Positions 2,870 to 60,094 of a stretch of 64,000 nucleotides of DNA are shown piece after piece; position 1 is the first letter of the stretch, and each line of letters starts with the position of its first letter. The position numbers and the translations under genes are program-made. Source of the stretch: Chrysomallon squamiferum (Eukaryota; Animalia; Mollusca); contig CM022678.1 of NCBI GenBank assembly GCA_012295275.1, forward strand, positions 3,782,001 to 3,846,000, read 5' to 3'. The notes beneath the pieces were generated by a model. It saw only the letters and a program-made list of their open reading frames with translations. It had not been told where the DNA came from and did no database searches.

Positions 2870-2911
2870 CATTCTTATGCTCATTGTTCATGTATATTGT
2901 TTATTTTATAT

Positions 2912-2942
<31 letters not shown>

Positions 2943-2964
2943 TAAAACCAAACAAGAAACTGTA

Positions 2965-14061: not shown

Positions 14062-14900
14062 TAGAAACAAAATTATGAAAAGAATAACGATAGACAATCA
14101 ATTTTTTCTGTTTTCACCGATAACAATATTTCAGTGTGTTATATTTATAAACATATCCAAATACAAAAACGTATCACACCATTCAGTGCAGACGATTAAA
14201 TAAAATATTAGCGTACACAGTAACACAGATAGTCCTGTCAAGAACGAGTAAAGAAAGGAAGAAAACATCTGTGTTAGACAGTAATAGAAATATTTAGTGA
14301 CGTGTGAGTCCAAAGTTTATCCAAAGTGTATTGATTTACATCCATTGTCTGAATAATGTATATTCTTTTAAATATAATTAATTTATCTATTCTTATAGCA
14401 GAAAAATTAAGAGAGAAAATAAAAATAAAAAATAAAAATAATGACAATAATAATAAAACAAAATAAAATAAATACTATAATTACAACAGAAATAATCAAG
14501 TCAATGCAGTGATACATATGTTTGTAAAAACTACAGTCGGTTCTGTGTAGTTATCGATCTACGTGCAAGCTACCACAACCTAACACTCCTGGTTTCTATA
14601 TTTACGACTGATGTGTTCTGCGTTTTCAGTAACAGTCGGCGTTAAACAACATACAAGTCACGGTATATACAAAGAGTACGTATCTTTCTACCTACCTTCC
14701 TTCATACCGGTCAAACACATACACAAACACTCACACACACAAACACATACATACATACATACATACATAAATTCATATATATATATATATTATATATACA
14801 TATATATACACACACAAACACACACTCATTCTTATGCTCATTGTTCATGTAAATTGTTTCTTTTTCAGTTTCAGATGTTAAAACAAAACAAAAACTTGTA

Positions 14901-16715: not shown

Positions 16716-18259
16716 TCAGTTTTCAATATATTGTGTGTGTGTGTCATTTAGATTTCACCCGTATTAAAAATAGTTCACCTTATAATTATATTAAAAGTAA
16801 CTGTGAAAATAATTCAGTGTTTCCTTGAGGTTTGTTAAATAGTTAAACTATATATATATATATTTGTTCTTCATCTACGAGGGAGAAATATGATCAGTTC
16901 TAGGTTGTAAATTGTGTGAACAAGTGGTCTGAGAGAAATGAGTGCTGTCAGTTGAAAGTAATGTTGAATCTGGTAGCGATATTGTTTATGGAAAAAGATT
17001 ACATATACCTTTCAAGATCATGGTTGTTTACCTCTGAAAATGAGCATAAACGTAAGGATCATAATCATTTGCTGCTTCTCCTTCCTGGTCTTTTCTTCTT
17101 TTTAGTATTACTTTGACTTTATTATTATTATTATTATTATCATTATTATAATAATTATTATTATTATAGGTAAAGTTTTTAAAGTTGGTTGTTCAAGAGA
17201 TACTGATAATGCGCTAACGTTATGCATTTGAGATAACTTACAGATAAAAAACAAAACACTTTAGATGCAGATAAAATAAACACCTGACAACGTGAGAACG
17301 TGACCATGTGTAGAACTAACATGTGACTCTTAGCTGTGTACAAAGTTCAAGGAGATAAAACAGTGGGCTTTTTATAAAATAATTCGAAGTTTTATCATTG
17401 AAATTGACTTACAAACACTGAATAACTCTTGCCACTTGTGGTTGTGATATTCCAGTTCTGCGACACCTAGGTGAATAAACTACAACAAACATCATCGCTG
17501 ACGATAAACACGCGTGTGATGAAAAGATCAGGTAATAAATAACTTTTCTTTCGTTTCGTAGAGCAGTAATAAACTGACGTAATTTGGAGCAATTTTATCA
17601 AATAGGTTTAGAAGGAAATTGATGAATAACAAGAAAATAGTGATGATAGAAGAAAAAAGTAAATAATAATAATAATAAAAATAAAGATAAGAATAAATAT
17701 AAATAAATACAACAGTGAAGTAAATAAACTGTAAAACAATTATTTGTAATTTGCTATAATTTGTTGAAACGACATTTTAAAGCTTGATTGCTTACTTCAT
17801 TTTGTCTAACTGTCATTGATGTTGTCGCTGGGTTTTTTTTTATTTCTTTTTCTTCTTCTTTATCGTCTTGTTCTTACTACTACTACTACTATTTGTATTA
17901 TTCATTGAATAATAAGTACTATTATTTTCCTTATTATAATTGCTGTTTGTTTTTAAGTAGTATTATTGCTATTATTGTCTGTGTTTTAATGTGTTATCTT
18001 AATGTTGAAAATATTAATGAGATTTAAGACATTCATTAACACATTTCTTTTCTTTCTTTTTTTTTAGCTGTGTGCTGCTTGTTTCTTTTAAATGTTGCTT
18101 TAAATTTGTGTGTAATTACCTTCGTTTTTCAGTTAATATTGTTGATTATCTATTGCATTTTATTTCAAGGTAAGAAGAAGGTGTTTCTCAGATGGAACAG
18201 TCATAGCCTTCTTGAATTAGACAGAACCCACAGATACAGCTATGAAGAGTTAATCTGTG

Positions 18260-19461
18260 ATGGCTGACAACTCTGTTGTTTCTCATATCAACATTAAACT
18301 GGAACACATAGCTTGTGAGGTCTGTTTAGAGTGTTTCGATGACAAGGAAAAGTTACCCAGAACACTTCCATGTGACCATTCCTTCTGCACACAGTGTCTG
18401 ACCTCTGTCTGGGACAGAGCACCAGACGGTGTGATCTGTCCGAAATGTCATCATCTTTATCCGGTCGAAGGGTCAATCGAGTCAAGCTTTGCAGTCAGTG
18501 GTATGCTGAAAGGCATCACAGAGTACATGCTACTGAAGAACAAGCCTGAACAAATCAGATGTCACGAATGTCCTGATAACCAGAACGCGGCAGTTCGCTG
18601 TGTCAACTGTCGAGAGTTTATGTGTTCGTCTTGTGCCAAATGTCACAAGAAATTTGCAGGCACAAAACACCACAAAACAGTTTCTCTTTCAGAGCTGGTC
18701 GAAATGCCAGCAGAAGAATTTTTCCAACCAAAAGACTCGTGTGATATTCACCCTCACATGTCCACTGACTTGTTCTGTGAAACCTGTACAACTCCTGTGT
18801 GTTCGTCGTGCACTCTAATTCACCATAAAGACCACAACATACACGACCTCAACGACGTCTACAGCAAGAAAAAACAACTGATTTCAACCATTTTGGCCGA
18901 TCTGCAGAAATCAACAACAGAGAACAAAATGTACAGACGAACTTTAAATTCAGACAAGACTAAACTAGATGAGATTTTAAAAACTCGTTTGGAAGAGATT
19001 GAGAAATCTGTCAACAAACTTGTGACACAAATAAAAAACGTGTCAGAACAGCAGAAAGAGGAAGTCAGATCAAATGTAGGGAGACAAAAAACGTTGAGAG
19101 ACAGAAAGTTAAACATGATTGGACAGCTTGAGGCTGACAGAGCTGATCACGTGACTGCCTGTGAACGGAAAATGCAATTCGCACGACAGTCTGAGTTTAT
19201 TAACATGTGTGGAGATCTTGAAAATGAAACAAATTCGCTGTTAGAAAATTCACATATAGTTGATATTTCATTAGAGGAAATTCCCCGAGATGACATATTT
19301 GTGTTGTTACAGAATCTGTTAGCGGAAAGACCTATAGCGTACAGCGGAACTAATTCTGAGGACGAAAAGCTAGGTATTTTTAAATACAGTCATCATTTAC
19401 AAAGATTAGCAGAAAATACGATGATTTAAATAGATAAGAGTTTTTTTCTTGATACGTGATC

Positions 19462-19553: not shown

Positions 19554-20760
19554 AATAAATGAAAAAGCAGACAGAAAAAGAGAAGGGGAGATAACTGCGA
19601 ATTTTCTGTTTGTATGTTACTATGAGTTAATTGTTTTCGTTATTTATACATAACTGTCTATATGACATATTTGCTATAGTAAATATTTATCATGATTATT
19701 AAACACTTTGTGTGTTGATTATTTCTGGTATGTACTTGTAGTATCAGACACGAAGAAGACGAGGAAAGATTCTGTTTGATGATCAACAAAGTCGGTTGGG
19801 CAAAGTTCTGTGTAAGTAAATTTTAATAATAAAAGAAGAGTTCGTAATCTAAAACTTCAGTAACCTATCACAGTGATGTTACACACAGACACACTCACAG
19901 ACTTACAGATGTATACTCACGCTATTTAATTGTGTTTGTCCTTCTGTGCCATTCCGTACCCGAATATTGTCTGAGTCTGATCAGACGTACACAAAACAGC
20001 GAATATACATTAATAAATGCGTCCGTACTGATGTTTGGTTTCTTTGTTGTTGTTGTGTGGGTTTTTTTCCTGTTCTTTTTTTTTTTTTTTAATTCATTTA
20101 CTTATTTATTTATTTCCTTTTGTTTCATTTCTATTTTATTTTATTTTACATGATTTATTTATTTATTTATCTGTAGTACCTAAACTGGACTTTTCCCTAA
20201 ATCTGAGTTCTGACACACCAACGTACTACGAGACAGAGTGTGTGATGAAAGAAAGACAGACGAAGCGAAAGACGACACAGCTTTGTCAAGTAGCAGAACT
20301 TGGTCTGTGTGTTAAAAACAATTCTCAGTACGGTTGGTTTATCAACAAAAACGTACACGTCTGGTACGTTCAAGTGTTGATAAACACAGATAACAGTTTT
20401 TATGTGAAGGTTTATTCTCGTACACATTTTGTGCATGAAAGTCGTGTCGCTGGTTACAGTGACAACTCTGTACTAAGACTGACCCTAGGCTGGTTACTGG
20501 ACACTAGAACCAAAACTTTACACGTCATTGACGTCAAACAGAGCAAACTGATTTACTCCATCCACGATGTTGACGTGTCGAAGCCGTTGACGCCAATGTT
20601 TTATAACAGCTGTTCTACATATTTCAACGTGACCGCAAAGGTGATTTCTGGCGAAAGTCTTTCATTGATTACTGATACTGTGAGACTGATATCCAACGTG
20701 ATGCAAGGAAAAAGAAGAAAAGAAGACGAAAGACAGTTGCAGTATTTAAAGAAGAAATAA
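18260..20760 (+). CDS. TRIM2: RING-Bbox-Bbox-coiled coil-SPRY-like, two coding exons (18260-19373, 20177-20760), ~565 aa
   Basis: Intact RING and B-boxes. Donor ctag|gtattt and acceptor ctgtag|ta are phase 1-compatible; 1114+584 nt = 566 codons including the stop. Confidence 0.87.
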
Positions 20761-22322: not shown

Positions 22323-23359
22323 TTAGTATCTGATTCCTGATTCTTCAATGTCTAGAACGGCTGCATACAACGACTCTGCATTAGGAAAAGTCTTCCCGTT
22401 TCTCTGTCTCTCTAGCTGAATTGCTTTCCTTACACTTTCTATGCTGCATCCAAACTCTAACACAGCGTCTATCATCGTACTGCGTACACCCCACATGACG
22501 TCATCATGGTTACGTATGCCCCCCTCTGCTCCGTCTGTATCTGTGTCACTATCACTTACGCCGGAGTCGGTTCTAACTTCCATACAGGATTGGTTTGTGT
22601 TTGTATTTCCTCCATTATAGGGCGCATATCCGATAGAACGTGCTTCGACCGTTTTTTGAAAGACGGTTTCGGTTTTCCTTTCAGAATGTTGTTCTTTGTT
22701 TTTCTTCTCCTCAGTTGGGTTAGACATTCTGTTGCTTTCTGTGTTTCTCTCGTCACTACTTGAAAACACGCCGCGTCTGGCTAGTTCTTGTCTCTGCCGA
22801 GCAAACTGGCAGTCGGGAGACCACGTGACATGGGCGTCCAGTGGAAAATCATCCTCGTCCCAGTCTCGTAGAGTGATACCACACTGGAAACATCTTGCTC
22901 TGTCCACAGATCCCAAGTAGAAAAAACCCTCTGCCGCCATGGACGGTGGACTTTGGTGTTCGTATTTTAGCGGCCACCCAAAGTAACTGTCTAGCCTATT
23001 CTGGTAGTTCTCGTATAACGGGTATTTCGGAGGAATTGTTGTCTCCACATTATTTCTACCAGTTTCCGATGTCGTCTGGTTTCTCCCGCCAAACCACTTA
23101 TTAATGTAATTGCAGTTCGGGGAGTGTTTACGATGTGTTTCAATGGCGTCGTATGACGGCAACCAGTTGTCTACTTGCACGCCACAAGTTTCACATTTCA
23201 CTTTGTCACCGTTACCAGTATACAGAAATCCGGCTATAGCTAGCTTGAGAGCAAGTCTTTTCCGATTCCAACCTCTGTATGTAGAAAACCGCCTTTTTAT
23301 TTTGTCTGCTTCTGTGACGCCGTTTACTGAAGGAAAGAGAAATCAATGGTTTCTGTCAT
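22323..23359 (-). pseudogene. IAP3 (BIR-BIR-UBA-like) with a 1-nt deletion near codon 9
   Basis: ATG at 23359 reads MTETIDFSFLQ*. Paralog IAP4 has tct tct cct tca, this copy has tct tt cct tca. The rest of the frame is open to 22323. Confidence 0.82.
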
Positions 23360-30741: not shown

Positions 30742-33700
30742 TCAGTATTCTGGAAATCTCCACATTTCACCGTTGCTATCTATGAAACTGAATCCACCTA
30801 TAATGCTTTTAATATTTGCATCAATACCTTTTTCAAGCAGCACTTTCAAAATTTCTACATTTGCACGTTGAGCAGCTAAATGTGAAAGAGACTTGTCGTC
30901 TTTGTCAGTTATATTAGGATCGGCTCCATGTTCCAATAAATACAAAACTGCATCATTCTGTCCATTCTCAAGAGCTGTAAACAGAGGAGACTTACCAGTA
31001 CTATTTTTAATATTTACATCAACACCTTCTCCAACCACTGCTGCCAAAACTTCTACATTTCCAAGTGCAGCTGCATGGTGCAAAACAGAATTGTTATCTT
31101 CGTCTCTTAAATTAGGATCTGCTCCCTGTTCCAATAAATACAAAATAACTTTATTCTGTCCACATTTAACAGCTCTAAGAAGAGGAGTTTCACACCGACT
31201 GTTTTTTATATTTACATCAAGATGTTTTTCAATCAGTGCTTTCACTATTTCTATATTTCCTTTTTCAGCTGCTAGGTGTAAAACAGAATTGTTATAGTTG
31301 TCTGTTAACTTAGGATCAGTTCCATGTTCCAGTAGATATAAAACTACTTTACATTTTTCATCATTCAGAGATGGATCAATTTCATCTTCATCATAAACAA
31401 CAGCTCTAAAAAGAGGAATTTCACCTTCAGTGTTTTTATTATTTACATCAACACCTTTTTCAATTAGTGCTGTTACAATTTCTAGATTTCCACATTCAGC
31501 TGCTAAATGTAAAACAGAATTTTTATCATTGTCTGTTAAATTAGGATCAGCTCCATGTTGTAGTAAATAAAAAATTACTTCACACTTTTCATCATTCAGA
31601 GATAGATCAAGCTCATCTTCATCATAATTAAGGGCTGTAAAAAGTGGAGTTTCACCACGACCGTTTTTTATATTTACATCAACACCTTTTTCAATCAGTG
31701 CTGTCACGGTTGCTATATTTCCTTCTTTAGCTGCTATGTGTAAAACAGAATTAACACACTTAGTTAAATAAGGATCAGCTCCATGTTCCACTAAATAGAA
31801 AACTACTTTACATTTTTCATCATTCAGAGATAGATCAAGTTCATCTTCATCATAACTAAGAGCCATAAAAAGAGCAGTTTCACCTCGACAGTTTTTAATA
31901 TTTACATCAATACCTTTTTCAATCAGTGCTGTCACAGTTTCTAAATTTCCTTCTTTAGCTGATAAGTGCAAAACAGAATGGCTAACATTGCCTATTAAAT
32001 TAGGATCACCTCCATGTTCCAGCAAATACAAAACTACTTTACATTTTTCATCAGTGAGAGATAGATCAAATTCCTCTTCATCATAATTAAGAGCTGTAAA
32101 AAGAGGAGTTTCATCTCCATTGTTTTTTATATTTACATCAACACCTTTTTCAATCACTGCTGTCACAATTTCTAGATTTCCATCTTTAGCTGCTACATGC
32201 AAAACAGAATTTTTATCATTGTCTGTTAAATTGGGATCAGCTCGATTTTCCAGTAAATACAAAACAAGTTTATTCTGTTTACACATAACACCTGTAAAAA
32301 GAGGAGTTTCACCTTTACTGTTTTTAATATTAACATCAGAATCTTTTTCAAAGAGTGCAGACACAATTTCTACATTTCCAAGTTTAGCTGCTAGATGTAA
32401 AACAGAATTCTTATCATTGTCTGTTAAATTAGGATCAGCACCATGTTCCATTAAACAGAAAACTACTTTATTCTGTTTATACTTAACACCAGTAAGAACA
32501 GGAGTTTCACCTTTGTTGTTTTTAATATTGACATTATCAGATTTTTTAATCACTGCTGTCACAATTTCTATATTTCCATGTTTAGCTGCTATGTGTAAAA
32601 CAGAATTGTTATGATTATCTGTTACATTAGGATCCACTCCACCTTCCAGTAAATACAACACTATTTTATTCTGTTTATACTTAACACCTGTAAGAAGAGG
32701 AGTTTCACCTTTATTGTTTTTAATATTTACATCAACGCCTTTTTTAATCAGTGCTGTGACAATTTCTGTATTTCCATGTTTAGCTGCTAGGTATAAAACA
32801 GAATTGTTATCATTGTCTGTTAAATTAGGATCAGATCCATGTTCCATTAAACAGAAAACTATTTTATTCTGTTTATACTTAACAGCTGTAAGAAGAGGAG
32901 TTTCACCTTTGCTGTTTTTAATATTTACATCAGCATTTTTTTCAATAAGTGCTTTCACAATTTCTAACTTTCTACCTTTAGCAGCTAGGTGTAAAACAGA
33001 ATTCTTAACTTCGTCTGTTAAATTAGGATCAGCTTTATGTTCCAGTAAACATAAAACTACTTTATTCTGTTCATGCATAATACTTGTAAAAAGAGGAGTT
33101 TCACCTTTATAGTTTTTTATATTTACATCAACACCTTTTTCAATCAGTGCTGTAACAGTCGGTCTATTTCCCAGTTTAGCTGCTACGTGTAAAACAGAAT
33201 TGTTAACACAGTTACATAAGTTAGGATCAGCGCCATGTTCTAATAAATACAAAACTACTTTACATTTTTCATTATTTTGAGACAGATCAATATGATCCTC
33301 ATCATAATTAAGAGCTGTAAAAAGGGGAGTTTCACCTCGACTGTTTTTTATATTTATATCAACACCTTTTTCAATCAGTGCGGTCACAGTTTCTATATTT
33401 CCTTCTTTAGCTGCTAAATGCAAAACAGAATTGCAAACGTTGTCTATTAAATCAGAATCACCTCCATGTTCCATTAAATACAAAACTACTTTACGTTTTT
33501 CATCAAACAGAGATAGATCAAATTCATCTTCACCATAATTAAAAGCTGCAAAAAGAGGAGTTTTACCTCTACAGTTTTTAATATTCACACCAAAACCATT
33601 TTCAATCAGTAGTGTCACAATTTCTGCATTTCCACATTCAGCCGCAAAGTGTAAAACAGAACTGTTATCACTGTCAGTTAAACTAGAGTCAGCTCCATGT

Positions 33701-36700
33701 TCCAGTAAATACATAACTACTTCATTGTTCTTACTATTTACAGCTCTCAAAAGAGCAGTTTCACCTCTACTGTTTTTAACATTTACATCAAAAACTTTCT
33801 CAATCAATACTGTCACAATTTCTATATTACCATTTTTAGCTACTAGATGTAAAACAGAATTGTTATTATTGTCTGTTAAATTAGGATCAGCTCCTAGTTC
33901 CAGTAAATAGAAAAAAACTTGACATTTTTCATCATCCAGAGTTGTATCAAATTCATCTTCTTCATAACTAACAGCTGTAAAAAGAGGAGTTTCACCTCTG
34001 CAGTTTCTAATATTTACATCTACACCTTTTCCAGTCAGTGCTGCCACAATTTCTTTATTTCCATGTTTAGCTGCTAGGTGTAAAACAGAATTGTTATCAT
34101 TGTCTGTCAAATTAGGATCAGCTCCATGTTCCAGTAAATACAAAACTACTTTCATCTCACAAGTGTCACATTTGTAAGAATTGCAGTATTTCATAGCTGC
34201 AAAAAGAGGAGTTTCATCTCGACTATTTTTAATATTTATATCAAAACCTTTTTGAATCAGTTCTGTCACAATTTTTATATTTCCACATTCAGCTGCTGAG
34301 TGTAAAAGAGAATTGTTATCACTGTCTGTTATATTAGAATCAGCTCCGTGTTCTAGCAGATAAAAAAACACTTTGTTCTGTTTATACTTAACAGCTTTAA
34401 AAAGAGGAGTTTCACTTCGACAGTTTTTCATATTTACATCAACACCTTTTTCAATCACTGCTGTCACAATTTCTATATTTCCATGTTTAGCTGCTAGGTG
34501 TAAAACAGAATTCTTATTATTGTCTGTTAAATTAGGATCAGCTCCATGTTCCAGTAAATAAAAAAATACTTCACATTTGTCATCATTCAGGTATGGATCA
34601 AATTCATCTTCATCATAATTAAGAGCTGTAAAAAGAGGAGTTTCACGTTGACTGTTTTTAATATTTATATCAACATTTTCTCTAACCAATGCAGCCACAA
34701 TTTCTTTATATCCATGTTCAGCTGCTATATGTAAAACAGAATTGTTATGATTGTCTGTTAAATTAGGATCAGCTCCATGTTTCAGTAAATACAAAACCAC
34801 TTGACATATTTCATCATTTAGAGATAAATCAAATTCCCCTTCATCGTAACTAACAGCTGTAAAAAGAGGAGTTTCACCTCCACTGTTTTTTATATTTACA
34901 TCAACACCACCTTCAATCAGTGCGGTGACAATTTCTTTATATCCATGTTTAGCTGCTATATGTAAAACAGAATTGTTATCATTGTCTGTTAAATTAGGAT
35001 CAGCTCCATGTTCCAGTAAATAGAAAACTACTTTGATTTGTTTAGACTGCACAGCTGTAAAAAGAGGAGTTTCACCTATATCGTTTTCAATGTTTAGATC
35101 AACAGCTTTTTCAGTCAGTGCTGTCACAATTTCTGTATTTCCACATTCAGCTGCTAGATGTAAAACAGAATTGTTATCATTGTCTGTTAAATGAGGATCA
35201 GCTTCATGTTCCAGTAAATAAAATACTATTTTGCTTCTAAGAAAGTTGATATCTTCATGTTTGTCAAAATCATACCTATAATAATTCAAAGTTGTAAAAA
35301 GAGGAGTTCCACCGTCACTGTCTCTAATATTTACATCAAAACCTTTCTGAATCAGTGATGCAACAATTTCTATATATCCTTTAGCAGCTGCTATGTGTAA
35401 AACAGATGTGTTATCATTGTCTGTTAAATAAGGATCAGCTCCATGTTCCAGTAAATATAAAACTACTTTATTCTGTTTACACTTAACAGCTTTAAAAAGA
35501 GGAGTTTCACCTTTATAGTTTTTTATATTTACATCAACACCTTTTTCAATCAGTGCTGTAACAGTCGGTCTATTTCCCAGTTTAGCTGCTACGTGTAAAA
35601 CAGAATTGTTAACACAGTTACATAAGTTAGGATCAGCGCCATGTTCTAATAAATACAAAACTACTTTACATTTTTCATTATTTTGAGACAGATCAATATG
35701 ATCCTCATCATAATTAAGAGCTGTAAAAAGGGGAGTTTCACCTCGACTGTTTTTTATATTTATATCAACACCTTTTTCAATCAGTGCTGTAACAGTCGGT
35801 CTATTTCCCAGTTTAGCTGCTACGTGTAAAACAGAATTGTTAACACAGTTACATAAGTTAGGATCAGCGCCATGTTCTAATAAATACAAAACTACTTTAC
35901 ATTTTTCATTATTTTGAGACAGATCAATATGATCCTCATCATAATTAAGAGCTATAAATAGGGGAGTTTCACCTCGACTGTTTTTTTTATTTATATCAAC
36001 ACCTTTTTCAATCAGTGCTGTCACAACTTCTATATTTCCTTGTTTTGCAGCTAGATGTAAAACAGAATTTTTATCATTGTCTGTTAAATTAAGATCGGCT
36101 CCATGTTCCAGAAAATAGAAAATTATTTTGTTCATAAAAGAGTCATTGCGAAAATTATATTTGATATAATTCATAGCTGTAAAAAGAGGAGTTTCACTTC
36201 GATTGTTTTTAATATTTACATCAACACCTTTTTCAATCAGTGCTGTCACAATTTCTATCTTTTCTGCATCAGTTGCTAAGTGTAAAACAGAATTGTTGTC
36301 ATTTTCTGTTAAATTAGGATCAGCTCCATGTTCCAGTAAATAAAGCACTACTTTGTACTGATCATTCTCAACAGCTTTAAAAAGAGGAGTTTCACCTCGA
36401 CTGTTTTTAATATTTATATCAAAATCTTTTCCAATCAGTGAAGTCACAATTTCTATATTTCCTTGTTCAGCTGCTAAGTGTAAAACAGAACTGTCGATAC
36501 TGTCTGTTAATTTAGGATCAGCTCCATGATCTATTAAATACAAAACTACTTTTGTATTACGATGTCTAAAAATGTCGTATTTGCAGTAACTCATAGCTGT
36601 AAAAACAGGAGTTTTACCTCCACTGTTTTTAATATTTACATCAAAATATTTTTCAATCAGTGCTGTTACAATTTCTATATTTCCATGTTTAGCTGCTTGG

Positions 36701-39700
36701 TGTAATAGAGAATTGCTATCATTGTCAGTTAAATTGGGATCAGCTCCGTGTTCTAGTAAATAGAAAACTACTTTGTTCTTACAACAGTACATATCTCGAT
36801 CTTTGAGAACATGATAATGATAGTAAGTCGTAGCTCTAAACAGAGGAGTTTCACCTCGACAGTTTCTAATATTAACATCAAGACCTTTCTCAATCAGTGC
36901 TGTCACAATTTCTATATTTCCATTTTCAGCTGCTAGGTGTAAAACAGAATTATTTTTTTTGTCTGTTAAATTAGGATCAGATCCATGTTCAAGTAAATAA
37001 AAAGGTACTTTGTTCGTAAATCCATAACAAAGAATACCAAAGTAATTCAGGGCTGTAAAAAGAGGAGTTTCCCCTCGAATGTTTTTACTATTAACATCAA
37101 AACCTTTTTCAGTCAGTGCTGTCACAAGTTCTATATTTCCCCATTTAGCTGCTAGGTGTAAAACAGAATTGTTTTCTTTGTCTGTTAAATTAGGATCAGC
37201 TCCATGTTCAAGTAAATTAAAAGCTAGTTTGTTGATATGAGAGTACGTACCTGGATGTATGAAAAACTGTTGATTGAAGTAGTCCAGAGCTCTAAAAAGA
37301 GGAGTTTCTCCTTGGCTGTTTTTAATATTGACTTCAAAACATTTTTCCGTCAGTGCTGTCACAATTTCTGTATTTCCATGTTCAGCTGCTATATGTAAAG
37401 CAGAATTGTTATAGTTGTCTGTTAAATGAGGATCAGCTCCATGTTCCAGTAAAAATAAAACTACTTTGCTCTCTCCAACCTGAACAGCTGTATGAAGAGG
37501 AGATAGACCTTCACTGTTTTTAATATTTATATCCAAATCATTGTCAATCAGTGATGTCACAATTTCTATATTTCCTTCTTCAGCTGCTAAGTGTAAAACA
37601 GAATTATTATCATTGTCTGTTAAATTAGGATCAGCTCCATGTTCTACTAAATACAAAACTATCTTGTTCTGTTTATAAGTAACAGCTGTAAACAGAGGAG
37701 TTTCACCTCGATTATTTTTAATATTTACATCAAAATCTTTTTCAATGAGTGATGTCACAATTTCTATATTTCCATGTTTAGCTGCTAGATGTAAAACATA
37801 ATTGCTATCATTATTTATCAAATTAGGATCAGCTCCATGTTCCAGTAAATATAAAACTACTTTGTCCTGTTTATGCTTAACAGCTGTAAAAAGAGGAGTT
37901 TCACCTCTACTGTTTTTAATATTTACTTCCAGACCTTTTTCAATGAGTACTGTCACAATTTCTACATTTTGATGTTGAGCTGCTAAATGAAAAACAGAAT
38001 TTTTATCATTATCTGCTAAATTAGGATCAGCTCCATGTTGTAGTAAATATAAAGCTATTTCTGGTCTGTTGTTGAACATAGACTGAAAAAGAGGAGTTTC
38101 CCCTTTAGTGTTAATTGCATTTATTTCAACATCCTTTTTTATTACTTCTTTCACCACGTCTATGTCAATCTGAGATGCTATGTGCAATGCTGAATTCTTT
38201 TGTTTATCTGCTATGTTAGTATCAGCACCATTTTTCAGTAACAACAAAGCTACTTCCTTTTTGTGTGTCACTGCTTTTACAGCTTCATGAAGTGGAGTTT
38301 CTCCCTCACTGTTTACAGCATTAACATCAGCTTTTCTCTTTATCAGTGATTTTATCATATCTAAGTCACCACGCTGAACTGAAATGTGGAGGGGTGTGTC
38401 TGAAGGCAACAATTTCAAACTAGTTTTGTCAGCAAACAACACTTTTGATTTAATTTCCTCTTCAGAGAACTGAATCAATTTCTGGTTAACAGCTACATTC
38501 AGATTAGGATCAGCTCCTTTATCAAGAAGACACTGAACAACATCTGCACTGTTAAAGATCAATGCCACTTTCAGTACTTGACTTTTCTTCCAGCTGTTCT
38601 CATCTGTGTAATTACATCTCTGCTCAATGAGAAAATTCACTGTATCACAACATCCCCAAATTGCTGCTGCTAAAAGTACTTTATCTCTGTTCTCATCATT
38701 TAAACAATCAGGTTTCAGTCTTACTATTTCTTTTATAACACTTGAAGTACTCTGACCAGCAGCAATGACAGCAATGTCTTTAATTTTGTTTATTATATCA
38801 ATGGTAACCAGTTTCTTAAAAGCATGGCTTATGTCAGCAACTTTAATAGTATCTGAGTTTTCCAAACACATGTTACTTGATTGAAAATTAACTTTTCTGT
38901 GGAACCTAAGCAATAAAAGTTTTACATTTTCTTCCTTGATTTCACTGTTGTGTTTCTCATTGTTTATCATGTCAGCCAAGAGGCAGGCAATGTTCATGTT
39001 ACCTGAACAAATACAAATATGTAACAAGTGTGAACACAGATTCAATTTTACCACTTTTTTATACTGTAACAGTTCTCTGAGTATGGTAGCACTGTCTGTT
39101 TTTGAGCAAGCAGCTGCACTGAATGTATCAAATGTTGGAATAACACCTGATTTTAGCAACATTCTCACAACAGGTTCATCACCAAAGAAACAAGAAATAT
39201 CCAAAAGTTCTTTTTTCTGATATGCTAATTTCATTTTACACAGATTTGATGTGAAAAATCTTGACAATGTTCTTAGTCCACCAACAACGCACATACTTGC
39301 AACAGATGATGAATACATCAAACTTCCTTTATCTTCCAAATACCTCATGCAACTTGAATGAAACTTTGATTGATTGTCAAGAAGACATAAAATATTGCTA
39401 AATATTTCATTAGGACTGTTTACATATACAGATGATATATAAAAGTATTTGTTTGTATATATTCTCTGATGCAGTATTTCAGACAACCTACCATAAAAGT
39501 GTTTTTCCTCTATGAGGTACTTTACAAACTGTTCGTCTTTCAGTGATGGATGTGAAATAATTTCTGCGGAAGTGTCTGATGCCAGCAAGTCTGAAAATCT
39601 GCGAGCAAGAACATCAAAGCAGTCAGGTTTCACAGTCATTGTAATGTGACTTTTGTTAGACACTCCAGGCGTCACAACATATTCTAACAACATGGAGACA

Positions 39701-40726
39701 GGACACACTTCTAGCAACTCTGCTGCTTTATTTGGAAACTTTGATGAAAACAGCAGAAACAAAGAGTCAAACAGTGACTGATGAATAAATGTGTATTTAT
39801 TGTCACAACGCTTCAAATACGTACCACACATTACATCAGCTGTTTCCTTTATATCTGTAAGATCAGTGTTTTTCAGACCTCTACAGACTCGCTCTAGCAA
39901 TTTTACTAATTTCATTATGTCACTGTCAGTGTCATTTTCAAATGGGTCCAGTGAATCAATGCTGAGACTGCCTTGTTGGAACAAGATCAGCAGTAGAACC
40001 AGGTAGTTGATCTGTGAAGATTTGTCATTTTTCAAATATTCCAATTGGTGTCTGAGATATTCTACAGGATTCTTAAAAAACTTAACTCCTCTTTTTTGTG
40101 CATCACTTGAATTAACATAATACAAACACACCTGAGGAAATCCTAACTCTGTACCTGAACACTTAATGACAGTTATTGCATGATTTTTCTGCATAGTAAC
40201 TTTCTTTTGTTTGAGATATTTGTTTAGAATTTCTTTCTTTTCATCATAATCCAGACAACAGTCATCACTCTGCAGATCAAGAACATGCTTCTCATTAAAC
40301 AGACTAAATTCCTTCAAACTAATTTCACTTTCTGAAAATATTTGTTTTCTTAAAGTAATAATACATTTCAAAGAACCATCCTGAACAAGCATCCATAGCT
40401 TAGGAAATTTCAGTTGCCATGAGTCTATAAAATCTGTAACAAGATTAGTCTTACCAAAAATGTCATCAATGAGAACAATACATTTGTTATTTTCAGATAG
40501 AGAGATGTCATTGAATTCATTGTGATGCGTCAGCAAGTAAGATTCTCTTTTCTCTTCTTTTTCTATCTGTGTCATCATGCTCAAAGCTACAGTTGTCTTT
40601 CCTGAACCTGGAATTCCTACTACAATCACAACACCATGCTTCTTCAAAAGTTCAACACCTCTTTCTTCTGCTCTTGTTTTAACATAGACACTCTGTCAGC
40701 TGAATTTAACATCAATCTGGTAGACT
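30742..40726 (-). CDS. Giant NLR-like protein main exon: STAND NTPase (nSTAND3-type) + about 70 ankyrin repeats (>3300 aa)
   Basis: Walker A GIPGSGKTT, Walker B CIVLIDDIFG, GFPQ motif and winged-helix-like YTFIHQSLFD, then 34 counted ankyrin doublets (GETPLF.A...YLLEHGADP / NSVLHLAA..GN.EIV..LIEKG). One uninterrupted ~10-kb exon with acceptor ttattcag at 40726. Confidence 0.93.
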
Positions 40727-41017
40727 CTGAATAACAACATTTAAAAAAGAACCCATCTATTATTAATTGTTTTGTACACATTTTACTATTTAAATATAAA
40801 TAATATAACTTTTAACATCATCGAATGTGACGTTTTTTAAAAAAATAATGCAATAGTTTGCTGTCGTAATTTTAGTTCATCACAATTTTATGACAATAAT
40901 AAAATAACACAGTTGTAGATGGTGTAAATGTAGCAAAATGTAACTTGTTATATATAAATGTCATCAAAAACTATACAAATAATAATAAAACACACACACA
41001 CACACATCCATACATAC

Positions 41018-42069
41018 CTTTGATAATGGATGCTCTTCCATCAGTCTTTGCTGAAATAATATAAAAAATATAACAAGTAAATTTATGTTACTAGTGGTGA
41101 GTAAAAGAGAATGATTAAAGTGATCTGCAACTTATTCTTACTACTGATACTAGCTATTTATTGTTATCTTTGATATATTATTATTATTATTATTGTGGTT
41201 GTTGTTACCTGTATTATATTTCAGTATTTAAAGCTGATTATAATGACAAGAATATAGTCTAGTTTAATTCATGTCGAGTTATATTAATAGTTTAAGTACA
41301 ATATCTAGATCAGTTTAACACACATACACTGTGTCTCCGTGTGTAATGCATGTCTTCATATATGCATGTGTTCTGTGTAAGTGTTAAGTGGGTATGTATG
41401 CACACATGCATGTATGTATTGGTGTCTGTCGATGGGCAGGTTTCTACGTTGTTCAGGTTACACTGTCTTACAAAAAAGTACTAATGACTTCTGTGATATG
41501 TATTCTGTTATTTATTAAACAGCTAGACACAAGAAAACTTTCAGTTTTTAACTTACTGATTTTAATAACTTGATCTCCAAACACAACATTCCTGTTATTA
41601 GACACAGCCTGGTATTTCTGAACTGTGTTGATATTTACATTCTGTTGTACCACTTGTTGTGTTCTTCCAGCTGAGTAAAAGAAATTATTTAAATTCACAA
41701 TTTATATAAATAATTTCTAAAAGTAAAACCATTTTTATCTACATGTAGATACGTGATAGTGTACAGTATTAATACAATCTGTCCTGAATATAATGATAAA
41801 ATTATAAGATTTAAAAAAGGTATTTAATAGTGTTATCTATGTATGTTCAAAATAATCAAATAATAATAGAGGTGTATTTTCTAACACAAAGCAGACCAAA
41901 ATCTTTGAATTGTTAATTATGAATATAAAATGAAAAAAGTGTCACTTTTCAAACCCTAACAAGAATAGAAATACTTCATTATTAAAGGTATTAATGATTT
42001 TGTCATACTCTCTGAGGAAGAAACGTCTGTGGCATCAGATGAAATTTCTGAATTCTCTTCGTCATCCAT
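41018..42069 (-). CDS. Three small 5' coding exons of the STAND-ankyrin gene (42069-42009, 41670-41557, 41050-41018)
   Basis: Canonical AG/GT sites, all phase 1, joining without stops: MDDEENSEISSDATDVSSSE-T-GRTQQVVQQNVNINTVQKYQAVSNNRNVVFGDQVIKI-T-KTDGRASIIK-E. Confidence 0.65.
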
Positions 42070-43053
42070 GATTGCTGATCTGTAAAAAATAATTTAATGA
42101 TTTTTTTAATTACATGACAGATTTTTTATTCACTATTTTATAGTGTCAGACATGTGGTTAAAAAAATTCAGATAACAAAAAAAAAAAAGAACCCAGAAGA
42201 AACCCACTGCCACCATTTGATGGTCTACTCTTTCTCATTAATAACAAGTGATATTTCATTTACACCTACCCACAGACTGCATTCTCAACTTTTGTTCTAT
42301 AAATATATTCCTGAAATATTTTATGAAATAACAGAATCTAAATAGGTTTTAATAAATGTCCTAATTTTGTAAATAGTGACGTTAGATTGTTATATAAAAA
42401 AACAGTCTTGAAAACATAATAATTACCTCATTGCTAATGTGAAAACTTAATACTGTTGTAATTAATTACTATAACATCATATTAGAATCAATTCATTCAA
42501 AACAGTTTATAACAGATAACTGATCATTATCACAAAGCATGCACAAGATGCTTTCTAAACTGCAGTACTATATTATGTCTATAAAATAATTGTCACAATA
42601 GTCATACATTGATATACTTTAGTTTTATTGTAAATATAATCATTATTAGAATAGTTAATAGTTATATTAATTTATAACTTAGTTTTGTAGTAGATATAAT
42701 TATCACAATAGCTATACTATCATTTACATTGGTTTTGTAATCAATTATTACAATAGTTATATCTTAGTTTTGTAGTAAATGTACTACCAATCAGAATAAT
42801 TATACAAAGTAACAATTACATTAGTTATTCCTAGTTAATTCTAGTCTTTTGACTAGCTTTGGCAACTGAAGTTTTATCAGTCTTCTGCTGTACATTGTAC
42901 ACTTATGATATTAAATTAAATTTTAATATTTTTTACTGACAATCACATTTATTATTTGAAATGTGTACATGATGTGTGTTTATATGTGTGTTTCTGCTTA
43001 CATCTGTGTGTATATGTAGGTAATTTGAACAAATAGTACGTTTACTTACTTAC

Positions 43054-43530
43054 AATTCAGTTTAACCCATCTTTAGAGTTTAGCTGTTGTATGTTAAACC
43101 AGTTGTTTGTCACTGACCATACAACTTTTCTGACCTGTCAACAGAACAATACAGAACTTACATACTGATTTAACTTTCTTCTTAAATTAATATTGTCAAG
43201 TAATACATTTTCCTTTCTTTATTATTATGAAAATATTTACTCAAAATATTATATAAAAAAGAAAAAAGAAAAAAGAAGAATAAACTGCAAAAAAACCCCA
43301 CAAAAACTAAAAAACTTACTAAAATTAAAATCATTCCATTATAATTGTTGTTTTTCAAAGTATCAAACATTATTAATTGACTCTGTTATAATACTGACTG
43401 CAGAATCACACATGTACATCGATACATTACTCTCAAAACATTTACTTACAATTCAGTTTATCCCATCTTTAGATTTTAGCTGTTGTATGCTAAACCAGTT
43501 GTCTGTCACTGACCATACAACTCTTCTGTC
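43054..43530 (-). other. Two duplicated 81-nt exons (43530-43450, 43134-43054), probably 5' UTR of the STAND-ankyrin gene
   Basis: Near-identical blocks, each bounded by cag| and |gtaagt; stops in all frames. Confidence 0.55.
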
Positions 43531-45554
43531 CTGTCAGTGAAACAATATAAAACACAGATGTCTACACATTTTATTTATTATTAATTTGTGTCAATTTTCA
43601 TTTAGAAAATAAAATAAATAAATAAAATATAATACAATAAAGATATTTTCAAAAACAACAACAAAAATCCACACTCTCAAAAACAGAAACGGTTCTAATT
43701 AGAAAAGACAGGATGAAATCTTGGAAGTATTTCCATATCATATGCTTGTAACTTTTAATGTCATTGATGAAATAATTTTTACCTTTTTTTTTTTTTACAC
43801 AGGATTTCAGTTAATAAACAGGAAATTTGTCACAAATATTTTCGCCAAAAAATCCAAATACCTAGATAGCAACAAAATCAAGATAACTATACTGAAAGAC
43901 AATGCACTTATGTGTACTGTTTTGGTACAAGGTCATGTAATTTGTGTACATATATATATTTATATATCTCAGTATACTTTTTATTACTCTGTAAACTACT
44001 GTCTGGGCAAGCACTGTGCTATTTTGGGTCCAGTATTGAGGAGCTGTAGTATGTAATAATTTGTTATCTCAGTAAACTTGTTTTATCACCCAACCCATTA
44101 TAACACCAACATTAGCTGAACACCAATGTCAGCATTACAGAGATTTATTACTGCATACATACTGGCAAAATATGATGACTACATACATTTATTTGTGGGC
44201 ATGACCAAAAAGTATAGCTTTCTGGGACAGATGTCTGTTTACTTTGACAAAATATGTATTTATAGACACACACACACTACATTTACTTCCTTAATATTCA
44301 AGTTTTAGGTTTAGGTTTTAAAAGACCATTCTGAAAACAGTTTTCATTCAAAAAAATAATCAGTAGCAGATAAGTATAAACTACTTGTTTTGATTTATAA
44401 CGTTAACAAAATCCAATTTTTGTGATATTTAGGACTGCACTGAAAAAGATATAACTGGTTACTGTTTTAACATATCAGACCAGCTTTATCCTGGTCAGAT
44501 CCAATGTTGAAAGCCTCGCTGTAGTTTGGCATTCTTATCTTTGCAGGATAACGTAGACACATCAGCAACCAGTTATTCCGTATATAAATATGTGTGTGTG
44601 TTTGTGTGGAGAGATTCATTATATGAACTAGTCACTATAATCTTAAACTGTATGTACTGTTACAAATTATAAGATCATTGTGACTATTTAACTATTTATG
44701 TTTAGTGTCGTGATTTGACTAAAATGACTGATCAAAAACTAATTTATATCAGACTTGAATACACATTGGATACATGTGTCTACATTCAGAGTATCATTCA
44801 TGCACATATAGAATGAAGAGAGAAGGAAAAAGGACATACAGAAGAAAAAGACTTATATGGAAATAATTCTAGAATAATAATATAATGCAAAGAGCATTTT
44901 CTTTAATAATTAATTATCTTCTTCTCTTTCACAATACTAGAGCCAACTAAAGGTCTGTACATAGTATTATTGTCCGTTTTACAGTAAGGAATAGGATGAA
45001 TTCTTGGTAACAGCACATAAATCTCTGCAGAAGGAAGTCAAATATTATTTTGAAGAGTTAATGTATCTGCAACTTTACATTTTACATGTCTATTAAATTT
45101 AACAGAGAAGGCAAACAGTTTGGTGAAACTTTTCATAGCCTACAATGATATAAGATATAAAACATTAATTTTACATAGATGTGTGTGTGTGTGTTATACA
45201 CACAAACAACATAATTATATATATCCATAATTATATAACTCATTAACTGCCACTATTTATTTCAAAACAGCAGTAGGCACACCAACAGTAAGACCATATT
45301 CTCAGAAACTGATCACATACTGATAACTACAAGGGTGGGATGGAAGGTTTGAATAGCTGAATTATTTTTAAATTTAATTTCCTAAAGCTTTTGAGAATTT
45401 TAGTTAATAAACAGGTATTGAATCGCAAACAGTTATTATCCAGTTTGTTTATCGAGTCGGCGCAATTTTAGAGAAGAACAAGAAATAAAAGAATGTAAAG
45501 AATCGAAGGAATTATATCTTTATCCGAATAATAATAATAATAAAAGAATGTACA

Positions 45555-49745: not shown

Positions 49746-50040
49746 TTACGTTAATGTTGCATGAAGGGGTGTTTTACATGCACTGTTTAAAATATTTATA
49801 GCAGCACCTTTTTCAGTCAGTACTGTCACAATTTCTATTTTTCCATGTTGTCCTGCTGCTTGGTGTAAAACAGAATTAATATCACAGGCTCTTGAATTAA
49901 GATCAGCTCCATGTTCCAGAAAATAAAAAGCTACGTCTCTATAATCACAATTCAGTGCCACAGTAAGAGCTGTTTCACATAGATAATTTATAGGATTTAC
50001 ACCAGCCCCTTTCTTAATTAGTGCTGCTACAATTTCAATA
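49746..50040 (-). pseudogene. Decayed ankyrin fragment paralogous to the STAND-ankyrin gene
   Basis: FYFLEHGADLN...NSVLHQAA...KIEIVTVLTEKG has the same doublet consensus; upstream IEIVAALIKKG is disrupted. Confidence 0.8.
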
Positions 50041-50611
50041 ATTCAATGTTAACCCTTCAGCAGGGAATTCACCTTCCACAACTTTCATTGTTGATTCTGA
50101 AATGTGGAAATAGTACTGATTTTGAATCTATTATAAACTTCTTTGAATGACGTTTGTTTGACTAGATGAAAATCTAAATCAGTCCAGGAAAATACTCTGT
50201 GTGTAGTCGTTTCAAAGTGTTAATTGAAAAGTAACTGTAATACTCATGACAAAAAATAATCAATCAATAACTAGTGTGTGTAATACTGTTAAGCAAACTA
50301 TATGTTTAAATTATGCTTGTTTAGTATATATGTATGTATGTCTGAAAGTTAATTAGATGAATAGAAATATTGTAACTGTATTAGTTCATAATTGTTTTTA
50401 AACGAAAACACAAATAAAAAGCCGAGATTCGGATTGCAGAGTCCGGGATCGCACAAAACATTTTAGATTTTAAATTTTAAATTTTAAATAAAGAATGAAC
50501 AGGCACTACTAAAAACAGTACAGTTTACGTTTTGCCAGTCTGTAGTAGAAATCGAAGTAAAACCGGAATCTTGTCAACTGATCGTGTGTGTGTGTTTTAA
50601 TTGTTAACACT

Positions 50612-51652
50612 TTAACACTTTACTGATTCTTCAATGTCCAGTATTGCTGCAAACAACGACTCTGCATTAGGAAAATCCTTCCCGTTTCTCTGTCTCTCTA
50701 ACTCTATTGCCTTCCTTACACTTTCTATGCTGCATCCAAACTCTAACACAGCGTCTATCATCGTACTTCGCACACCCGACATGACGTCATCGTCGTTGCG
50801 CACACCCGAAATGACGTCATCATCGTTGCGAACACCCGACATGTCGTCATCATCGTTACCAACTCCCCCGACTGCGCCTTCTGTGTCTGTGACGTTATTA
50901 GATACACCGGTGATAGTTCTCACTTCCACAGAGGATTCGTTCCTGTTTGTATTTCCTCCATCACAGACCGTATCGGGTTTCCTTTCAGAATGTTGTTCTT
51001 TGTTTTTCTTTATCTCAGTTCTATTCAATTCCGGTTTTGTCTCGTCACTATTTGACGACACTCCGCGTCTGGGTAGTTCTTGTCTTTGTCGAGCAAACTG
51101 GCAGTCGGGAGACCATGTGACATGGGCTTCCAGTGGAAAATCATCCTCGTCCCAGTCTCGTAGAGTGATACCACACTGGAAACATCTTGCTCTGTCCGCA
51201 GATCCCAAGTAGAAAAAACCCTCTGCCGCCATGGACGGTGGACTTTGGTGTGCGTATTTTAGAGGCCACCCAAAGTAACTGTCTAGCCTCTTCTGGTAGT
51301 TCTCGTATGACGGGTATTTCGGAGGAATTGTTGTCTCCACATTATTTCTACTAGCTTCCGATGTCGTCTGGTTTTTCCCGCCAAACCACTTATTAATGTA
51401 AGAGCAGTTCGGGGAGCGTTTGCGATGTGTTTCAATGGCGTCGTATGACGGCAACCAGTTGTCTACTTGCAGGCTACAAGTTTCACATTTCACTTTGTCA
51501 CAGATACCAGTATACAGAAATCCAGATATAGCTAGCTGGAGAGCAAGTTCTTTCCGATTCCAACCTCTGTACGTAGCATACCGCAGTTTTATTTTGTCTG
51601 CTTCTGTGACGATGTTTACTGAAGGAGAAGAGAAATCACTGGCTTCTGCCAT
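50612..51652 (-). CDS. IAP4 (BIR-BIR-UBA-like, no RING), 346 aa
   Basis: Start MAEASD inferred from paralogs, both BIR Zn motifs intact, acceptor tttccagtttcag upstream, candidate first-exon donor near 52851. Confidence 0.92.
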   Translation of the reverse strand: MAEASDFSSPSVNIVTEADKIKLRYATYRGWNRKELALQLAISGFLYTGICDKVKCETCSLQVDNWLPSYDAIETHRKRSPNCSYINKWFGGKNQTTSEASRNNVETTIPPKYPSYENYQKRLDSYFGWPLKYAHQSPPSMAAEGFFYLGSADRARCFQCGITLRDWDEDDFPLEAHVTWSPDCQFARQRQELPRRGVSSNSDETKPELNRTEIKKNKEQHSERKPDTVCDGGNTNRNESSVEVRTITGVSNNVTDTEGAVGGVGNDDDDMSGVRNDDDVISGVRNDDDVMSGVRSTMIDAVLEFGCSIESVRKAIELERQRNGKDFPNAESLFAAILDIEESVKC

Positions 51653-53242
51653 CACAGTTTTTTGTTTGGTTTTAATATCTGAAACTGGAAATGAAACAGT
51701 ATACATAAACAACTAGCATAACTAGCGAAATATGTATGTTTGTATGTATATATCTATGTGTATGTATGTATCTATGTGTATGTAAGTGCATAATTGATTT
51801 ATTTATTTATTTACTTATATATTTAAAAAATAATGAAAACAAATTATATATATATATATATATCAATCTCACCTCATTGGTTATGCAGGGTTTTTAATTA
51901 GGTGTTGGGCGTGGCTGGAAAAACAGGGTACAGACAGTTGCTGATATATTTTTTGTCAATAAAATGTCATTTTATGTTATGGTATGTTTGTATAATTTGT
52001 TTAGTGGGAATCTTGGATAAATGAATCAATAAAGTAAGTTAACAAAAATAATTCTCAGGCAGCTATATCATACAATATTTTTATTTATTTTATTTTATTT
52101 TTTTTAAATAAAGCTTCGGTGATCAAAATGTTAAGAGTTGTGGAGTGGTGATAAAAAGCCAAAAAAAAAAAAAAAATTACTAAAAACATAATTCTGTCTA
52201 AATCAACAATAATATTTGAATATTTATCCTAAAATTATATTGTAATTAGTATTTTACACCTGTACCTGAAACACATTATATCAGTCTATGCGTTTGGTGT
52301 TCATAATTACAATCAGAAGTAACTACCTCCTTAAACAAACAATTACAGAACCTCAGAAACTTTAATTAAGTGAAATTTTGTAATTAACAAACCTTTGAAG
52401 TTGTGTCTTTAGAAATTCTATGTTTTATAGCTTGGTTTTAATCAACAAAAAATTCTGTTATATTTTATTAATAAAATAATAAATAAAATTTTATTAATTA
52501 AAAAAACAATAATTCTGATCAGTTGTCCTATTTTTCATTGCCCTGTGTTTTGGAAAGACATGTGACCCTAACTGTGAATGCAACTGTAAACTAATCTACA
52601 TAAATAATAGTGGCAGTATTTAGAGAGGGTGATCATCTCCTCGTCTATCTAACTACGACCAGATATGTCAGTAACATGACACTGAGCACAGATATATGTT
52701 AGAAAAAAAAAAATATATATATATATATATATAAAGGATTATTTTTTTAAAAAGAATAAACAAACATCGGTTTAAAATGATATCAGCAGATAATTTCAAT
52801 AATATCGTGTTAAACAAATATAAAGAAAACAATAAAATTATGCTCACTTACTGAAAAAGAAAATGGCTGCCGCTGTACACTACTCGTTGACTGTATTTTT
52901 AGACACGCGTAACTTCTGTCATGCGTACAGTTAGGTTACGAAACCACACGAACGAATAAATATTTCCTTCTTTCTTTTTTTCTCTTTTTTTTTCTCCCAC
53001 TTCTGTGCAATACAGAAATAATTATATTAACCAGTTCAGCATGAGAAACTTTTAATTGTCAAAAGACAAACTCACAGGTTTTATTTCATTATAGGTAATG
53101 CTAAAGACGCGTTCAAACTGGTCGATTGTGTGTAATGATATTTTATTACTGCAGTAATGCAAGCAAAGAAATATGTTGGCATATTTCCAATTTATATGAA
53201 TGGCTGTACGTGTTCATATGTATATATTTGCATGTATGTAGG

Positions 53243-59822: not shown

Positions 59823-60094
59823 GCTTAGTTTTTCATTTATTTACATATTCACTGTAATTACAGAAAACTGCACTAATTTAGTTCATGTTTTCTAAGGAAA
59901 TGACAGAAATATTTTACTGGTGAAAGGGTTGAAGATTTCTTTAGGTTGTTGTTGATTATATTTAGTCAGATTTCTAAACAGATATTTTACTGGTGAAAGG
60001 GTTGAAGATGTCTGTAGGTTGCTGTTGATTATATTTAGTCTGATTTTCAAAATAAATAACAGAAATATTTCACTGCAGGATGAGTTGAAAATGT

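Follow-up and report, generated by a model that had tools for sequence, protein, structure and literature searches.

Highly conserved repeats occur in NLRs of all domains of life, and in fungal NLRs an internal conservation of at least 0.7 has been tied to repeat shuffling (PMC13449251). Fungal NLRs of this high-internal-conservation (HIC) type, such as the HNWD genes het-d/e/r and the NACHT-ANK genes of Podospora, join a STAND ATPase to highly similar repeats with hypervariable, selected positions; the repeats are gained and lost and are likely exchanged between genes (PMC13449251). The closest characterised nSTAND3 system is Avs5, an antiphage sensor with the layout Sir2-nSTAND3-TPR/PPR (10.1101/2025.07.08.663546), and expansions of STAND and ankyrin immune architectures with differences between haplotypes have been described in molluscs (PMC8195603, PMC9646362). 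Here we analyze an nSTAND3-ankyrin gene on the minus strand of a 64,000-nucleotide stretch of the Chrysomallon squamiferum genome (assembly GCA_012295275.1, contig CM022678.1, positions 3,782,001 to 3,846,000), referred to below as the window.

The gene resembles the fungal HIC NLRs in its STAND ATPase and highly similar repeats, and in addition 18 of its ankyrin repeats carry an inserted loop at the same turn. Our best explanation, to which we assign a probability of roughly 60%, is that the gene belongs to an expanded gastropod STAND-ATPase/ankyrin family, likely of NLR-like intracellular sensors, in which fast-evolving loops on a homogenised scaffold are the likely source of germline diversity in the binding surfaces.

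The gene and its loops

The coding region consists of the following parts.

30742..40695, minus strand: single open reading frame of 3317 codons with the STAND module, degenerate ankyrins and the ankyrin doublet array (open reading frame and Pfam)
39500..40695, minus strand: STAND NTPase module; nSTAND3 (PF20720) at residues 4-162, E 1.6e-25 (Pfam, fold match)
38300..39460, minus strand: helical region, about residues 412-800, predicted to fold as degenerate ankyrin repeats (fold match of a model)
30895..38100, minus strand: array of about 33 ankyrin doublets, 66 amino acids (aa) each without insert, scaffold 82% identical in DNA (repeat parse)

PF20720 scores 90 bits against a cut-off of 27.2, Walker A (GIPGSGKT) and Walker B (VLIDD) are intact, and Pfam finds ankyrin repeats across the remainder of the frame. 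In an AlphaFold model of residues 1-758 (confidence score pLDDT 81), residues 1-400 match MalT (Z 14.2, root-mean-square deviation [rmsd] 5.7, 323 aligned), NRC2 (Z 13.5, rmsd 4.0, 269 aligned), a STAND-TPR protein (Z 12.5), Avs5 (PDB 9jap; Z 12.1, E 3.7e-4, 293 aligned, rmsd 26) and SAMD9 (Z 11.8), and residues 412-758 match ankyrin solenoids. The protein thus has two features of STAND proteins, a P-loop module with a helical and winged-helix extension and superstructure repeats at the C terminus, here the ankyrin array. It is not a canonical NLR: in the Pfam search the NACHT score was 21.5 bits, below the cut-off of 26.7, and no LRR was matched. With Avs5 it shares the Pfam ATPase family, the tripartite layout and variable C-terminal helical repeats, but Avs5 is bacterial, with an enzymatic Sir2 effector and a TPR-type sensor (10.1101/2025.07.08.663546), whereas the animal protein gave neither a Sir2 nor a TPR match in Pfam and has ankyrins in their place and a short predicted N-terminal segment. 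Sequence searches of the Atlas, PADLOC and PDB returned generic ankyrin or weak matches only.

The closest named relatives are proteins of Gigantopelta aegis, at most 48% identical over the ATPase, and the window protein is nested in the Gigantopelta clade of a 37-row tree (support 96/91 and 100/98). These proteins and those of Haliotis (e.g., XP_041355392.1; P0089, P0123, P0126 and P0128) belong to the same family; they differ in that the repeats are for the most part divergent, with no more than three inserts in any one protein. In one of them, the 3380-aa Gigantopelta protein XP_041355392.1 (P0142), nSTAND3 is matched at residue 1770 and a further Walker A-like motif lies near residue 84; its repeats are highly similar and contain only two inserts.

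Our repeat parse yielded 35 second-repeat sites, 33 in regular doublets (units 2-34) and two in degenerate N-terminal ones, one of which has two extra residues. The 18 inserts, of 7-13 aa and all in frame, sit without exception at the helix1-helix2 turn of the second repeat (18/33 second versus 0/33 first repeats; Fisher p = 3e-7), and begin 2-3 residues past the motif TPLFxA. All insert-bearing sites lie within 31330-37320, an interval with 28 second-repeat sites. An initial annotation of the locus, made from the letters alone, had placed 34 doublets in this interval and the inserts directly after TPLFxA; the doublets and the site are real, and the count (28 there, 35 in the whole array) and the exact start need correction. 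The frame-preserving inserts, their positions and sequences, their division into seven aromatic and eleven acidic loops and the high similarity of the scaffold DNA are as it described them.

37231..37287, minus strand: loop 5, 19 aa (+13), aromatic 19-aa family
37012..37050, minus strand: loop 6, 13 aa (+7), aromatic
36775..36831, minus strand: loop 7, 19 aa (+13), aromatic 19-aa family
36553..36594, minus strand: loop 8, 14 aa (+8), aromatic
36130..36174, minus strand: loop 10, 15 aa (+9), aromatic; weak kinship to loops 5 and 7 (z 3.4-4.6)
35233..35289, minus strand: loop 14, 19 aa (+13), aromatic 19-aa family
34153..34194, minus strand: loop 19, 14 aa (+8), aromatic; weak kinship to loop 8 (p 0.027)
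31351..35949, minus strand: span of the eleven acidic 17-aa loops (+11 each), 51 nt each, with lower ends at 35899, 35668, 34804, 34573, 33922, 33493, 33262, 32041, 31810, 31582 and 31351
35419..36069, unstranded: recently duplicated units; 295-bp exact match to 33087 and 190-bp exact tandem match 35533/35764

Between units, the scaffold is 0.82 identical in DNA (0.72-0.94) and 0.68 in protein (528 pairs), and its similarity to the consensus is 0.80 (59 columns, 33 doublets, loops excluded), a figure that is our own measure and not that of T-REKS. The internal conservation expected from fungal NLRs is therefore present, at a level above 0.7. Units 11/12/23 and 13/24 are recent duplicates, and the acidic loops 11, 12 and 23 derive from recent near-exact duplications. 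In an AlphaFold model of units 4-11 (pLDDT 83; two of five models folded) both helices are lengthened at most inserts, and the tips of loops 5, 6 and 7 have a pLDDT under 50. The structure prediction proposed by the initial annotation thus places the inserts at the helix ends, and by ankyrin geometry the tips would line one rim beside the concave binding face.

How special is the insertion site? Insertions in ankyrins cluster at the hairpin and between the helices; any insertion is found in 9% of repeats, and those of more than five residues are rare (PMC4687027; 10.1101/858845). The inter-helix region is also enriched in binding residues (PMC4687027). We counted inserts in other proteins with two half-profiles. 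Among 122 ankyrin proteins, a set biased toward inserts because the search query carried them, inserts of at least 5 aa occur at 217/2042 inter-helix turns and 71/1896 hairpins. In 34 nSTAND3-ankyrin relatives we found inserts at 20/364 turns, compared with 18/66 in the window protein (p = 8e-7), a baseline that is if anything high since at least two of the 20 look like missed repeats; 12 of these relatives have at least one insert, with a maximum of three per protein. The six relatives with equally similar repeats have inserts at 3/135 turns, and eight Gigantopelta proteins at 13/101. In the suggested search of mollusc nSTAND3-ankyrin proteins for the same site, six of these eight thus have at least one. 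Given the surveys and these counts, the site is ordinary and the tendency clade-wide; the combination of a homogenised doublet scaffold with dense loops was present in none of the 34 relatives, and this density on such a scaffold was not seen elsewhere.

These counts bear in both directions on the main rival of our explanation, namely that the loops are passengers which the fold tolerates. On this view, an insert that arose long ago at a turn permissive to it spread as the doublets were duplicated and now drifts almost neutrally, the scaffold meanwhile being kept uniform by conversion; any recognition would be a matter of the ordinary ankyrin groove. We consider this near-neutral drift doubtful. 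That the turn is a known insertion hot spot, with the excess over hairpins in our query-biased set, suits it; the density of 18/66 turns against 3/135 in equally conserved relatives does not.

Two further groups of proteins are of note. The long ankyrin proteins P0051, P0066, P0081, P0088, P0091, P0092 and P0112 have 4-6 differing inserts at the inter-helix turn, often rich in Tyr, His or Ser; four have PF07525, and they are possibly an independent case. In P0013 and similar fungal-type matches, every second repeat of a doublet array has the same short insert, which recalls the acidic loops described here.

Evolution of the loops and their scaffold

The seven aromatic inserts had been called unique, which holds for their protein sequences and not for their DNA. 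Loops 5, 7 and 14 have only 3-5 of 19 residues in common, and their DNA aligns without gaps at 0.54-0.62 identity from codon 4 (codon shuffles 0.30-0.35, p <= 1.5e-4). These three loops are ungapped homologues, and the aromatic loops are therefore not independent. In codon models, loops 5, 7 and 14 have a dN/dS ratio (omega) of 2.8-3.6, compared with 0.25-0.33 in the scaffold of their own units (p about 4e-4); when the synonymous rate is made common to both, omega is 1.7-1.8 (p 0.10-0.15 versus 1), and across all codon tests the ranges are 1.7-3.6 for the loops and 0.25-0.38 for the scaffold. The comparison of dN/dS asked for by the initial annotation thus shows aromatic loops that evolve faster than the scaffold, and an omega not significantly above 1. 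The latter fits passenger loops, as omega = 1 is not rejected.

The composition of the aromatic loops points the other way. Their content of Tyr, Phe, Trp, Cys and His is 0.36-0.40 compared with 0.21 expected from base composition, and that of Val, Ile and Leu 0.10-0.11 compared with 0.30, with the caveats that the residue set was picked after the loops were seen and that three loops are related. The previously noted richness in Tyr, Phe, Cys and His thus exceeds what AT bias predicts, and the aromatic excess and aliphatic deficit depart from the drift expected of passengers. AT bias as the sole cause of the composition was rejected on the same grounds. No source or donor copy of the seven aromatic loops was found elsewhere in the window.

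The acidic loops tell a different story from the one first proposed: described as hypervariable, they are conserved. Omega of the nine non-duplicate acidic loops is 0.24-0.48 (0.24, p 0.001 with F3x4; 0.48, p 0.07 with F1x4), and their DNA identity of 0.82-0.83 equals that of the scaffold. Such purifying selection argues against loops that are merely tolerated. It agrees with a further alternative, in which the loops are functional but not in the recognition of non-self: the acidic loops, 42% of whose residues are Asp or Glu, would form a polyanionic rim that holds a constant basic partner, be it a host protein or cations, or that acts by mimicking nucleic acid; the aromatic loops, enriched in Cys and His, would bind metal or fixed host partners. 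We regard this as improbable, because it leaves unexplained the fast divergence of the 19-aa family, the differing loops of paralogues and the positive selection in the scaffold.

In the scaffold, model M2a outperforms M1a whether the maximum-likelihood tree is used (p 1.7e-4 and 8e-6) or a star tree with 28 units, units 12, 23, 24, 27 and 34 having been removed (p 3e-8). All four model runs single out columns 10 (end of helix 1) and 32 (beta-turn) as positively selected, and the few selected, hypervariable positions of HIC NLRs thus have a counterpart here, although gene conversion may inflate such tests. Both columns are among ten scaffold positions which we take to be those randomised in DARPins; over these ten, omega is 0.82-1.11, compared with 0.35-0.47 elsewhere and 0.43-0.58 for the whole scaffold. 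The two selected codons belong to the binding face. The same result has an uncomfortable side, as the only significant positive selection sits in the scaffold, as would be expected of passenger loops beside an ordinary binding groove. Scaffold similarity is not predicted by loop class (p > 0.05 in 5/5 windows), which is expected if flanks recombine and equally if the units radiated quickly; a half-versus-half mosaic test was uninformative, its control being likewise near zero.

The stretch was found in nine sequencing runs of the same organism from three studies, of which we compared eight (X8 was left out), with 8 pieces listed per run; one run may be the source of the window. The contigs are short, none spans the array, and assembly into contigs drops rare variants. 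Contigs without substitution cover loop 5 (X6, X7), loop 6 (X1, X6; X3 with one gap), loop 8 (X3, X5), loop 14 (X1), loop 19 (X3; X1 with one gap) and loop 22 (X1, X2, X4), from which we conclude that at this level the loops are not an assembly artefact. The contig over loop 7 in X6 has one difference from the window, and for loop 10 no spanning contig was among the matches listed from the eight runs. As many as 31 contigs disagree at a single position of the ATPase, and as many as 99 at one of the scaffold, and read depth collapses at each loop: the scaffold is common to many copies and the loops are private. In X6 the summed contig depth reaches about 480,000 on scaffold bins and 113-142 on single pieces, a sign of many copies rather than a copy number. 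A 21-base scaffold pattern occurred at two bacterial loci of a metagenome collection, both without ankyrin frames.

Further loops at this site, read by hand from joint and loose-end tables among the matches listed, extend the diversity to paralogues: MDCFRFHYYQDQLS in X6, with the same joint in X9; FRHYKICLDL in two contigs of X3; DDLDESSNIP in X3, the end of which recurs in X7; and, in X2, a variant of loop 5 that begins LDWNRFEFFRD. Most other rows among the matches listed are short-turn variants, scaffold or blends. Four read-derived loops are rich in aromatic residues (22/48, counted by hand in loops chosen as aromatic), which again speaks against neutral passengers. The invariance of the loops, proposed earlier as a refuting observation, was found in part. 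They are identical to the window wherever an exact piece is listed (7/8 runs), and in X6 loop 7 has only the window's form among the matches listed; in X9, from the third study, the contig over loop 7 has diverged (13 listed differences, 12 of them non-synonymous; 35 over 207 bases). Among the matches listed, the absence of an exact window copy in X9 and of loop 7 cover in X5 and X7 carries no weight. Nothing points to the somatic or individual-level reshuffling that had been envisaged, since the loops are constant across the samples of two studies.

Transcription, 5' end and neighbourhood

In two RNA runs the depth over the intron bins at 40726-41527 is 0.7-5.3, as opposed to 66-883 in two DNA runs; the same RNA runs cover the coding bins well and contain exact pieces of the array. 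We conclude that transcription of this copy, on which the initial proposal depended, is probable; the contigs give neither level nor strand. Upstream of the large exon, splice signals predict three phase-1 exons.

42009..42069, minus strand: candidate coding exon 1 (ATG, acidic and Ser-rich) with a phase-1 donor (splice signals)
41557..41670, minus strand: candidate exon 2, Gln/Asn/Val-rich, with a RHIM-like NVVFGD motif (splice signals, RNA depth)
41018..41050, minus strand: candidate exon 3, 33 nt (splice signals)
40693..40726, minus strand: candidate 5' end, large exon; after splicing, the frame is off by one base near 40694

The bin of exon 2 is enriched over the adjacent intron in the RNA runs. 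The predicted N-terminal segment has about 70 residues, and a RHIM-like motif lies upstream of the ATPase in two of 31 relatives listed (GNQNVHVGD in P0123, a looser form in P0125). A 95-bp direct repeat (94%) at 43046-43140 and 43442-43536 ends in a minus-strand donor-like GTAAGT and is possibly a duplicated non-coding 5' exon.

Joined to 40726, exons 1-3 run into a stop after 16 wrong-frame codons, and two RNA contigs have single-base gaps within the array. Could the one-base shortfall where the large exon begins mean that this copy is a pseudogene of recent origin or a null allele, in which the loops are relics? We think this highly improbable: the 10-kb frame is intact, the scaffold omega is 0.43-0.58, and exact pieces are present in the RNA runs. 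Moreover, an X2 contig has one extra base somewhere within 40661-41056, whereas none is present in an X4 contig that covers 40772-41056, as expected if the window contains an error, or represents an allele, of one base; paralogue contigs with one more base near 40694 appear at a loose end in X4. These data suggest that the missing base is an assembly error or an allele.

Four frames of BIR type and two with RING/B-box surround the gene, a neighbourhood that we count in favour of an immune sensor. The four long frames are paralogous (2653-4002 and 14853-15929, plus strand; 22323-23342 and 50612-51712, minus strand); the one at 2653-4002 has two BIR domains, the other three are 74-87% identical to it, and together they form an IAP-like cluster around the ankyrin gene. 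Two TRIM-like RING/B-box genes (6936-7877 and 18254-19429, plus strand) are 74% identical, and are followed by frames at 8771-9418 and 20032-20760, 44% identical to each other and without Pfam match; the IAP-TRIM block looks tandemly duplicated. An isolated 98-codon ankyrin fragment at 49746-50042 (minus strand), 43-49% identical to the array, is probably a paralogue relic. A tandem array with periods of 62 bp and 106 bp occupies 58773-59827.

A putative repertoire of loops

The initial annotation had inferred a germline-encoded, shuffleable sensor of many specificities. Its architecture, internal conservation, fast aromatic loops and paralogue loops speak for such a sensor; the acidic loops, in contrast, are not hypervariable, and nothing in the read contigs points to somatic shuffling. 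Several results weigh against the sensor that we favour. An omega above 1 for the aromatic loops is not significant in any test (p 0.08-0.18; 0.10-0.15), and homogenisation of the scaffold by conversion, which can also inflate the site-model tests, could give old loops a fast look. Eleven of the 18 inserts are conserved, loops are constant among samples of two studies, and the read variants of loops 5 and 7 are each compatible with neutrality (p 0.20-0.80). The test of loop class against scaffold has low power because the unit tree is star-like, and the site is tolerant, with at least seven extra residues at 111/2042 turns in the 122 proteins. Finally, the RHIM-like segment has no Pfam match, and splicing as predicted would leave the mRNA with a 1-nt break in its frame near 40694.

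How might a loop-bearing sensor arise and work? Unequal crossing-over and gene conversion in the common scaffold would duplicate units and carry loops between units and genes, and point mutation would diversify the aromatic loops. The ankyrin rod would present the selected groove and the rim of loops. By analogy with NLRs, ligand binding would free and oligomerise the STAND module, and the signal would pass on through the short RHIM-like segment at the N terminus, with cell death as the probable outcome; this activation by a STAND switch and an N-terminal motif is modelled on NLR biology (10.1101/2022.07.19.500537) and on Avs5.

The fungal HIC NLRs differ from the window gene in having NACHT or NB-ARC instead of nSTAND3, their diversity comes from point positions and repeat number, and their ankyrin length variants, as far as they are reported, measure only 33-36 aa without loops of 7-13 aa (PMC13449251). 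In the literature searched, which covered few subscription papers, we found no description of loop display in such STAND-ankyrin proteins; mollusc examples may appear in the supplements of PMC13449251.

Lamprey VLRs and brown-algal shuffled repeat receptors also set variable modules on a repeat scaffold, and in VLRB a variable insert protrudes. The assembly of VLRs is somatic and draws on cassettes; here, neither a cassette (a donor copy of the aromatic loops in the window) nor somatic variation (in the read contigs) was seen. In LoopDARPins, the loop sits in the beta-turn and not at the helix1-helix2 turn. DARPins and LoopDARPins have the constant ankyrin framework and variable surface positions of the window protein, but are engineered and synthetic. 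Loop-extended versions of DARPins exist (PMC10542815); natural ankyrin proteins rarely display many differing loops in this way.

A more far-reaching hypothesis, which we find possible yet hold only tentatively, is that a gastropod lineage has a natural LoopDARPin-like repertoire: tens of STAND-ankyrin genes on one recombinogenic doublet scaffold would draw on a genome-wide library of aromatic loops, like complementarity-determining regions, that are exchanged between units and genes and differ between populations, each protein being a multi-specific sensor of intracellular microbes or viruses.

How invertebrates obtain broad recognition repertoires without antibodies is an open question, and in the repeat-based NLRs known so far the variation lies in single positions and in the number of repeats. 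The gene described here offers an animal nSTAND3 protein to study, and each doublet of 66-79 aa is a small expressible unit, so that specificity can be tested directly, loop by loop. If the loops bind ligands, they would represent a further route to such repertoires, in which a constant, recombining ankyrin frame presents peptide loops of variable length and sequence, a design close to the engineered LoopDARPins.

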